Source: a virus
UHGV virus genome: UHGV-1366123
Direction: 5' to 3' (one strand)
Length of the DNA: 64,000 bases
Shown piece by piece: positions 35,385 to 36,881 of this stretch. Position 1 is the first letter of the stretch, and each line of letters begins with the position of its first letter. Below the pieces are notes generated by a model that did no database searches, had not been told where the DNA came from, and was given only the letters and a program-made list of their open reading frames with translations. A program made the position numbers and the translations under genes.

Positions 35385-36881
35385 ATGATCAATTGTAAAC
35401 AGATCAGAGACAAGATGTCGGTGTCTTATTTCGACGAAAACGGAAACATTGCGATATCTGACATAACAATAGACGATCGTGAAAAGTACGTATGGACAAA
35501 GACAACCGAAGATGATAAGTTTCGTGATAAGACTTACGTATCCCAAGACGGATTTCCAGTTAAAAAGGAACGTAAGTCCTATCTCGACAAATATCGCAAG
35601 ATCGAGTTCTTGCTGTCTCTGCCAGAACGTTTACAAGCGAAGATTTTCTCAAACAATCAACCACGTAAGTTCTTCTGGGATATAGAAACCGAGGTGTTTG
35701 ATGATTTCCCCGATGCAGGAAACCCTGTGGGACGAATCTTCACGCATCAGTATTGTGATGAGTTCGGGAATGGTACTGTCATGGGGATCAAGCCACTTTC
35801 ACAGGTGCAAATCGAATCTATCGAACAGAAGATCAACGACTATCTTTCACAAATCACCGATAAAACACTTCATCAGAGGTATAAGTTCCGTTACATTTAC
35901 TACCCCGATGAGTTCACGATGAATAAAGACTTCGTCGAGAATCACGCAACACGGATGCCGTGTATTTTCGGCTGGAACGTGCTGAAGTTCGATACAAGAT
36001 ATCTCGTCAACAGGTGTAAGAAGACGAACATTGATCCTACGATTTTGTCCCCGAAGAGGATGCTTTACTCGACGATTGCGAAAGATAAGTTTGATCATTC
36101 ATCGAAAATTGAAATCGAACTTCCTCTTCATCGACCAATCATCGACTACATGCAAATCTTTGAGTTCTTTGATAGATCGATTAAGCAGAAGTCATCAATG
36201 TCACTCGACTTTATCGCATCGGAGATCCTTGGTGTCAAGAAGATCCATCATTCCGAAACTCTGATGGAACTCTATGAGAAGGACTATGAACGTTACGTGC
36301 TTTATGGTATCATCGATACCTTCCTCGTGGCGTTGATCGATAAGAAGTGCAGAACATTCGAATCAATGAGCGTTCTTGCAAACCTTCTACGTGTCGAAGT
36401 CGCTCAATCGATGTTCGTCAGTGTTGGGATCGAAACACTCTTGTGTGACTACTATTACAAGCATTACAACAAAGTGTTTGTAAAGGATTATGACAAGCAG
36501 ATTCCCGAAGGTGAAACTTACAGTGCAGGATTCGTTCTACAACCAGGTATTGGTGTTTATGACGGCATCGTCATCTATGACTACGAATCACTGTTCCCTT
36601 CAATTATGCAGATGTTGAACGTTGGTGAAGATGTTTACCTCGGTCATACCGATGATCAAGGTAAAACTTACGTGGACAAACTCGGTGAAGAACACGAACT
36701 TGACGAATCGATGTGTTATTCATCAAGTGGTGCAGTTTACTCAAAAAACAGAGATTCCGCAATTCGAACGATGATTTCGAACATGTTCAACAAACGAGTA
36801 GAAGCAAAACACAAAGAAGCAGAAATCAAAGCAGATATTAATCACTTAAAGCAGATATTAAAAGATAACTTCGGACATTAA
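35385..36881 (+). CDS. family B DNA polymerase, N-terminal fragment (3'-5' exonuclease Exo I-III plus polymerase motif A)
   Basis: FWDIETE (Exo I), IFGWNVLKFDTRYL (Exo II), YGIIDTFL (Exo III), YDYESLFPSIMQ (motif A DxxSLYPS). Ends about 60 aa after motif A. Confidence 0.85.
   Translation: MINCKQIRDKMSVSYFDENGNIAISDITIDDREKYVWTKTTEDDKFRDKTYVSQDGFPVKKERKSYLDKYRKIEFLLSLPERLQAKIFSNNQPRKFFWDIETEVFDDFPDAGNPVGRIFTHQYCDEFGNGTVMGIKPLSQVQIESIEQKINDYLSQITDKTLHQRYKFRYIYYPDEFTMNKDFVENHATRMPCIFGWNVLKFDTRYLVNRCKKTNIDPTILSPKRMLYSTIAKDKFDHSSKIEIELPLHRPIIDYMQIFEFFDRSIKQKSSMSLDFIASEILGVKKIHHSETLMELYEKDYERYVLYGIIDTFLVALIDKKCRTFESMSVLANLLRVEVAQSMFVSVGIETLLCDYYYKHYNKVFVKDYDKQIPEGETYSAGFVLQPGIGVYDGIVIYDYESLFPSIMQMLNVGEDVYLGHTDDQGKTYVDKLGEEHELDESMCYSSSGAVYSKNRDSAIRTMISNMFNKRVEAKHKEAEIKADINHLKQILKDNFGH

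Follow-up and report, generated by a model that had tools for sequence, protein, structure and literature searches.

Family-B DNA polymerases (PolBs) are not always made as a single chain. Methanothermobacter has a split archaeal PolB consisting of two polypeptides, PolB1 and PolB2, as its cellular enzyme, and in Nanoarchaeum equitans the two PolB halves are ligated by protein trans-splicing through a split intein. Split PolBs of phages – including PolB encoded by separate genes – are likewise already documented, and the case described here does not overturn the current understanding. It concerns a stretch of 64,000 nucleotides of the UHGV virus genome UHGV-1366123 (hereafter the window, meaning the whole stretch that was analysed), in which two open reading frames (ORFs) on the + strand, polB-N and polB-C, carry complementary parts of one PolB. 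polB-C lies upstream of polB-N, at a start-to-start distance of 24,314 nt and with about 25 genes between them. The two ORFs would encode the subunits of one heterodimeric replicative DNA polymerase of the T4 gp43 type, a reading to which we give a probability of roughly 0.85.

The best-known counterparts are the 43A and 43B genes of T4-related phages. In phage 25, as the work of Petrov, Ratnayaka & Karam (2010) is relayed in PMC2988022, the 43A and 43B proteins co-purify and are polymerase-active; 2–3 kb separate their genes, and a homing endonuclease as well as an intron are found there. For Aeromonas phages, PMC2677866 puts the separation at 2–3,000 bases, one case having a GIY-YIG endonuclease. 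In Aeromonas phage 44RR2.8t (L178), whose GenBank annotation gives two coding sequences (CDSs) for the polymerase, gene 43 (1,497 nt, 498 amino acids (aa)) and 43B (1,176 nt, 391 aa) are 49 nt apart; the window's halves have 498 and 400 aa, and in a MAFFT alignment the two breaks fall in the same column. An earlier sequence-only reading of the window had cited 43A/43B as split at a similar point, and the likeness is thus closer than it had claimed. In both cases, a T4 gp43-type PolB is encoded by two cistrons without an intein. However, the 43A/43B cistrons are adjacent, whereas those of the window belong to different gene blocks at a distance of 24.3 kb; moreover, the 43A/43B split is a derived oddity in an otherwise one-gene family, whereas in the window's clade the split is the normal state. 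With only ~23–27% identity to T4-like enzymes, the window's polymerase does not belong to the Straboviridae gp43 lineage.

A more distant precedent is provided by the chimallivirus PhiKZ, in which gp82 (DNAP-N) and gp50 (DNAP-C) bind each other stably at 1:1, in an architecture like that of RB69 gp43 (PMC13648687, a preprint of October 2026). As in the window, PolB is made from two separate genes – the gene numbers suggest that their loci are distant – and the motif A aspartate resides in the N half and the motif C aspartate in the C half. Unlike in the window, the PhiKZ break lies inside a large palm-insertion domain, with both fingers helices in DNAP-C, and the 1369-aa enzyme has the clamp-like subunit Rhc and comes from another phage lineage, without a T4-type clamp loader, whereas the window's polymerase has 898 aa and no large insertion. 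The N. equitans enzyme differs in that the window's halves have no intein and a junction that is seamless relative to fused homologues. Finally, an engineered Pfu polymerase has been split 'near the finger tip', so this position tolerates a chain break (PMC3061061).

The closest cultured examples of the split state, with the same break as in the window, are Sphingomonas phage PAU and Chryseobacterium phage MA9V-1, both members of the window's clade. In PAU, whose GenBank annotation makes the two-gene state of this lineage visible, gp105 (CDS of 1,464 nt) and gp110 (CDS of 1,215 nt) are separated by four genes, including one for a dUTPase and gp109, a proposed sliding clamp (PMC4889955); in MA9V-1, ORF135 (1,488 nt) and ORF138 (1,278 nt) are both listed as polymerases (PMC10537231). 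The halves of both phages measure ~490 and ~405–425 aa and stand in N-to-C order 2.2–2.4 kb apart, as against 24.3 kb with C upstream in the window, and they are 27% (N) and 19% (C) identical to the window's proteins. A literature search found no paper discussing the PAU/MA9V-1 split. The best match for both halves in the phage collection, at 32–33% identity, is ORF67 of Flavobacterium phage MaF61, a single fused gene (995 aa); there, groES/groEL lie just upstream of the intact polymerase gene, whereas the window's chaperonin genes are downstream of polB-N.

Both ORFs, with every motif quoted in the sequence-only reading, were found as stated. polB-N comprises the N-terminal domain (NTD), the 3'–5' exonuclease, the part of the palm that contains motif A, and the first of the long fingers helices. 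The motifs in this ORF (35385..36881) are Exo I (FWDIETE; D99/E101), Exo II (FGWNVLKFD; D203), Exo III (YGIIDTF; Y307/D311) and motif A (YDYESLFPSIMQ; D399, S402, L403 and P405 within the span 398–409), and the fingers helix carries R471 and K475; D99, E101, D203, Y307, D311, D399, S402, L403, P405, R471 and K475 are invariant in the homologue alignment (20 homologues for the Exo residues). Pfam matches positions 26–142 of the DNA_pol_B profile above the cut-off, and DNA_pol_B_exo1 at 22.6 bits, slightly below its curated cut-off of 23 bits. The protein ends in ...LKQILKDNFGH, with the TAA at 36879–36881, about 90 residues past motif A and not about 60, as had been estimated. polB-C takes over with the second fingers helix and motif B (KVALNSIYG; K45, N49, S50, Y52 and G53), the remaining palm with motif C (YADTDSVF; D121–T122–D123), both strings lying in the ORF 10957..12273, and the thumb. 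All of these numbered residues of polB-C are invariant among the aligned homologues, and Pfam recognises DNA_pol_B from profile position 156 onward, above the cut-off. The active-site carboxylates are therefore divided, motif A being in polB-N and motif C in polB-C.

Placed end to end, the two proteins amount to 498 + 400 = 898 aa, the length of the T4 chain in PDB. In phmmer comparisons with PDB, residues 97–475 of polB-N align with residues 112–486 of RB69 gp43, and residues 29–291 of polB-C with residues 544–794; similarly, T4 gp43 182–500 aligns with polB-N 169–492, and T4 gp43 524–780 with polB-C 12–277, in agreement with the earlier claim that the C ORF matches the T4 segment following that of the N ORF. 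The intact MaF61 polymerase aligns with polB-N 9–490 and then with polB-C 11–400, with 37 nt between the matches. Judged by these alignments, the concatenated halves are collinear with RB69/T4 gp43, with nothing lost and nothing gained.

Structure prediction gives the same picture. A single-sequence AlphaFold2 run on the concatenated halves was unusable (predicted local distance difference test (pLDDT) score 31.5) and was replaced by an alignment-based run, with 65 rows arranged block-diagonally – N-only, C-only and a few full-length homologues – which yielded a pLDDT of 92.7 and a predicted template modelling score (pTM) of 0.84. A Foldseek search of PDB with this model retrieves RB69 gp43 along the full length, with template modelling (TM) scores of 0.71–0.80 over ~950 alignment columns. 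The full domain set – NTD and exonuclease as well as palm, fingers and thumb – is present across the two halves and, together with Exo I–III, motifs A, B and C and the fold, places the enzyme among family-B polymerases of the T4 gp43/RB69 type. In the model, a long helix (459–494) leads to the junction (498/499), which lies in a loop or small hairpin, and a second long helix with motif B follows (518–553). Since the halves are complete and collinear and the model runs helix–junction–helix, the break lies at the tip of the fingers helical hairpin, and not in a variable linker, as the sequence-only reading had it.

The start of polB-C also needs correction. The mechanical ORF start, TTG 10957, had been taken as the beginning of the C fragment. 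Close homologues of polB-C (31–98% identity) have 374–439 aa, mostly ~400, and cover the query from M1, a residue that is near-invariant among them; because they match from M1 at about this length, ATG 11071 is most likely the true start.

The same break was found in many other phages. In a search of 5.8 billion proteins, polB-N had 34 homologues at 20–99% identity, 30 of them with 455–573 aa and one with 354 aa; the three with more than 700 aa are all at 24–27% identity. IMG/VR was then scanned with profiles of both halves, followed by local tblastn and ORF extension. The N profile retrieved 80 loci, 28–99% identical along the whole N protein: at 79 of these, the N ORF stops 0–27 residues from the window's break, and at the remaining one (L048) the gene is fused (889 aa). 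Distances to the C half were taken from these N-profile loci and local tblastn, as the C-profile listing was without close relatives. In 30 of the 79 split loci, the C half is 1.0–8.6 kb downstream on the same strand (median 4.3 kb); 20 have no C half within 10 kb on either side, 28 have flanks too short to place it, and in one (L026) it is directly upstream of N, in permuted order. In this last locus (IMGVR_UViG_3300006037_000005), C (4963..6147) stands immediately 5' of N (6154..7659) on the same strand, the whole occupying 4963..7659.

Larger genomes show wider separations. In a 167-kb relative from the window's own subclade (48% identity for N, 43% for C), N at ~17.7 kb (+) and C at ~143 kb (−) are ~123 kb apart. 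Five complete huge-phage genomes have the halves separated by 281 kb (LR756504; N at 255.9 kb on the + strand, C at 538.0 kb on the − strand), ~133 kb (LR756502; N 253.9 kb, +; C 120.5 kb, −), ~102 kb (LR745206; N 232.8 kb, +; C 130.6 kb, −), ~618 kb on the linear record (LR756501; N 90.4 kb, −; C 710.0 kb, +) and ~13 kb (LR756500; N 262.5 kb, −; C 248.8 kb, −). In LR756500, LR756501/3, LR756502 and LR745206, the tblastn match to the C half begins at about residue 97–141 of the query, at or just past motif C, and the C half may there be interrupted once more near this motif, whether by an intein, an intron or an extra split. The window's break point is also where the N ORFs of Lak-C1 and LR756502 end, with no C half within 20 kb; tblastn with two C queries at E ≤ 1e-30/1e-35 did not find the Lak C fragment either, and TAG recoding may fragment the tblastn matches in Lak and so hide it.

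A rough neighbour-joining (NJ) distance tree of these sequences, which are ~30% identical, was used as a hint only. In it, nearly all split forms fall into one clade, away from the fused enzymes of T4-like type; the window's companions are MaF61, PAU, Lak and the huge phages rather than T4-like sequences. As the split forms make up one clade while the fused MaF61 and L048 are nested in different subclades of it, the tree suggests one old fission followed by rare re-fusions. A large clade has the split in common: PAU-like phages, the LR7565xx huge phages, numerous IMG/VR contigs and probably Lak. The sequence-only reading, which implied that dispersed halves are exceptional, overstated its case: they are the rule in a very large clade, and PhiKZ offers a precedent (PMC13648687). 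Our literature search found no paper describing that the finger-tip break is conserved across the clade, that it coincides with the break of 44RR, or how widely the gene positions range.

Among T4-like marine (cyanophage-type) IMG/VR contigs at 25–27% identity, the N ORF also ends here in L128 and L149, and possibly in L133 and L137, with the C half 20–435 nt downstream. Such breaks outside the main split clade suggest that the finger tip is a recurrent tolerated break point, with sequencing frameshifts as another possible cause.

In the heterodimer model, an ancestral polymerase gene would have been cut at the tip of the fingers hairpin. PolB-N would supply the NTD, the exonuclease for proofreading, the palm half that holds motif A and the first of the two fingers helices; PolB-C would supply the other fingers helix, which holds motif B, as well as the palm half that holds motif C, and the thumb. 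Each would be translated from its own start to its own stop codon, in separate transcription units. Since the active site requires an aspartate of motif A, which is in N, together with those of motif C, which are in C, it would form only after the two polypeptides have associated non-covalently, presumably by completing a common palm sheet and by pairing their fingers helices antiparallel to each other. The split itself would be old, and the two genes would since have been moved around freely by genome rearrangement.

Several points weigh against this model. The structure was predicted for N and C as a single chain, and as such shows complementarity, not dimerisation. That the PolB-N/PolB-C pair associates and is active is something we infer, because of the complementarity of the halves, their conservation and the precedents (43A/43B of phage 25, DNAP-N/C of PhiKZ and the engineered finger-tip split of Pfu). 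With regard to expression timing, the surroundings of both genes were scanned for sigma-70 promoters and terminators, which were no more frequent there than in shuffled sequence. Moreover, the window represents 64 kb of a genome of ~145–150 kb, and a second polymerase encoded elsewhere would fall outside it. This last point, together with the finding by local tblastn of only one N-type and one C-type PolB segment within the window, is also what could be said for regarding the halves as decaying remnants or a dispersed duplicate, with replication carried out by another intact polymerase or by that of the host. Such decay is nonetheless very improbable in view of the selection acting on both genes: in Nei–Gojobori comparisons with relatives at 98–99% amino acid identity (dS 0.2–0.5), dN/dS is 0.021–0.025 for polB-N and 0.017–0.029 in three of four comparisons for polB-C, the fourth, with a near-identical relative, giving 0.121 from 7 substitutions only. 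Both halves are under strong purifying selection (dN/dS ~0.02), the catalytic residues of Exo I–III and motifs A, B and C are invariant down to relatives at 25–30% identity, and gene length is constant for both halves across a huge clade. An additional polymerase in the rest of the genome is argued against indirectly, by relatives and proteins: the listed complete genomes of PAU, Lak and LR7565xx have only one place each that the N query matches, and the 5.8-billion-protein search with polB-N returned no close full-length homologue. An assembly chimera – with the halves adjacent, or forming a single gene, in the real genome – had been named in the sequence-only reading as an outcome that would refute it. 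The window is of metagenomic type and has no matching isolate, and megablast of 20 kb of it against phage records found no match; even so, the likelihood of a chimera is next to nil. The exact polB-N protein occurs on 8 contigs and the exact polB-C protein on 11, and an independent human oral metagenome contig (ERZ989047 k127_107027; 31,294 bp) carries both, 100% identical and with the same spacing to the nucleotide, which rules against misassembly. Several ENA, Logan and IMG/VR assemblies show the same order of genes in the vicinity of each half, G+C is uniform across the window (~0.40), and polB-N and polB-C have start and stop codons of their own, which are conserved.

If the genes are genuine and intact, their products might still be joined after expression, by protein trans-splicing as in N. 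equitans or by RNA trans-splicing, and the polymerase genes of phages and archaea do in some cases contain split inteins or introns (PMC2677866; PMC12880540). The halves leave no spare sequence for this, however, being collinear over 898 aa with T4/RB69 gp43 and MaF61, with about a dozen residues unaligned when the junction is compared with fused homologues. Pfam finds PolB domains only, and no Hint/intein domain, in either half; Rfam at the gathering threshold has 0 matches anywhere in the window, and hence no intron of group I or II; no homing-endonuclease gene is present among those flanking genes that were scanned (some neighbours only, among them groES/groEL and DUF5131). polB-N ends in TAA, with groES beginning 4 nt later, and M1 of polB-C is near-invariant, all of which makes splicing extremely improbable. 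The core of the sequence-only reading – one PolB encoded by two distant genes, broken between motifs A and B, without a splicing element or its remnants – is borne out in that the halves are complementary and complete. A further alternative grants both proteins a function but gives them independent roles, such as a stand-alone PolB-N exonuclease or other partners, with the separation being regulatory (in timing or stoichiometry) and not neutral. The different transcription units and gene neighbourhoods would fit this, as would the fact that polB-N keeps its linkage to groES, groEL and the gene for a single-strand DNA-binding protein (SSB) down to 48% identity while the position of polB-C varies; besides, a second, split minimal PolIII-like enzyme is reported from the jumbo-phage group with Lak and PTm1 (Iyer et al., PMC7824862). 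Yet motifs A and C must meet for polymerisation, and fused MaF61 and L048 are nested among split forms in the rough tree, which suggests that the fused and split states are functionally interchangeable; independent roles thus seem decidedly unlikely.

The heterodimer can also be placed in a more far-reaching scenario, which we regard as speculative and, on balance, unlikely. Here, a single ancient fission at the finger tip would define a very large clade of big phages and be ancestral to it; the subunit genes would then have become mobile, and their separation would be exploited functionally. The window phage may belong to this clade along with PAU-like phages and the mega/huge phages of the Lak and LR7565xx kinds; its polymerase genes may stand side by side in either order, or be separated by a few kb or, on opposite strands, by up to at least 281 kb, with MaF61 and L048 re-fused; and separately timed expression may gate assembly of the replicase, C being located by an iteron-rich candidate origin and N by GroES/GroEL.

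The two genes lie in quite different surroundings (see the table). polB-N begins 31 nt past the preceding ORF, deep within a co-directional array, and polB-C is the first gene past a 1.4-kb non-coding region and heads a nucleotide-metabolism block. The chaperonin genes after the N fragment and the non-coding repeat region by the C fragment, both reported in the sequence-only reading, are present, and synteny in relatives, which it had proposed to check, could be followed: the order polN–groES–groEL–SSB is kept (L003/L025, 11489..14785; L001, 3354..5619), and the surroundings of polB-C are not.

Table. Features of the 64,000-nt window, in order of position.
Feature	Position	Strand	Remarks
T4-type portal	ends 1244		PHROG/Pfam
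Guanylate kinase		−	PHROG/Pfam
Non-coding region, 1.4 kb	9662..11070		Between divergent gene blocks, directly 5' of polB-C
In-frame upstream extension of the polB-C ORF	10957..11070	+	Mechanical ORF start TTG 10957; probably untranslated; has TCATCTAC four times
8-nt tandem repeat TCATCTAC, four copies	10999..11038		
polB-C	11071..12273	+	400 aa from ATG 11071; ORF, Pfam, homologue starts, structure model
DUF5131, DUF2828, thymidylate synthase, two DHFR-like genes	right of polB-C		PHROG/Pfam
Tandem DHFR-like genes	18156..19214, 19228..20097		
Ribonucleotide reductase	21323..23365		Followed by HU-like protein
Adenylosuccinate synthetase-like and lyase genes, MazG	after HU-like protein		Synthetase-like and lyase genes: purine branch
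Large terminase ORF 1	32745..33827		360 aa; ATPase part; Terminase_6N, phrog_2
Large terminase ORF 2	33880..34698		272 aa; phrog_24361 'terminase'; presumably nuclease part
polB-N	35385..36881	+	498 aa; TAA stop; ORF, Pfam, phmmer, structure model
groES-like co-chaperonin (Cpn10)	36885..37142	+	4 nt past polB-N stop
groEL-like chaperonin (Cpn60)	37152..38741	+	
gp32-like single-strand DNA-binding protein	38821..39963	+	
Weak primase-like protein	40042..41220	+	phrog_47, E 6.7e-6
Baseplate wedge	right of primase-like gene		
Dda-like helicase	53061..54407	+	
dNMP phosphatase-like protein	between Dda-like helicase and clamp loader		
Clamp-loader subunit	55690..56661	+	
Prohead protease, major-head-like protein	right end of listed context		

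The non-coding region contains iteron-like AAAGACAATGG/AAAGACTATG repeats, partly in 21-nt phase, a 174-nt repeat present three times and inverted arms of 23–37 nt (GGAAGGTACTTTCCTTG); Rfam has no match in it. It looks like a candidate origin of replication or regulatory hub, to judge from its repeats. In a relative at 43% identity (L006), a repeat region of this type is not adjacent to polB-C. The CACGTAAAACTNTA repeat just upstream of polB-C was considered as a window-wide promoter motif and rejected, as its 5 matches (with ≤2 mismatches) were equalled in 3 of 100 shuffles.

Nearly all genes of the window are on the + strand, and no tRNAs were found in it. Gene content points to a T4-core myovirus, in which the split enzyme is the only PolB visible in the window and whose replisome would be clamp-loader-dependent, since a clamp-loader subunit among its genes implies a clamp-dependent replicase. 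SSB, the Dda-like helicase and the clamp loader amount to a replisome of T4 type encoded near the polymerase, which also speaks for the heterodimer model. It is probably an oral myovirus of ~145–150 kb, because near-identical IMG/VR contigs measure 144.8 and 149.1 kb and the exact proteins occur in the oral metagenome ERZ989047; its relatives suggest a host in Bacteroidota. Genes of nucleotide metabolism, including thymidylate synthase, the DHFR-like pair, ribonucleotide reductase, the adenylosuccinate synthetase-like and lyase genes, MazG and guanylate kinase, form a dense load (16340..20097 and 25775..29470). The large terminase, too, is apparently encoded by two adjacent ORFs, between which stand a TGATGA stop and an AT-rich spacer of 52 nt, an arrangement kept in relatives at 97–100% identity.

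The split also matters in practice for the handling of these genomes. Any gene caller or taxonomic marker pipeline built around a polB of ~900 aa will mishandle the clade, by scoring a 'partial' gene or counting two polymerases, and 'DNA polymerase' phylogenies of PAU-like, Lak and huge phages should concatenate both halves. As regards biology, a replicative polymerase evidently tolerates a break at the finger tip, for the two-gene state lasts at ~30% identity, with the genes anywhere in genomes of 0.15–0.7 Mb. The finger tip would be a recurrent weak point of the fold, being split in 44RR and, apparently, in several T4-like marine contigs as well. Moreover, the adjacent, ~4-kb, >100-kb, permuted and re-fused arrangements of the two genes constitute a natural series in which to study how the stoichiometry of an obligate heterodimer is kept without operon linkage.

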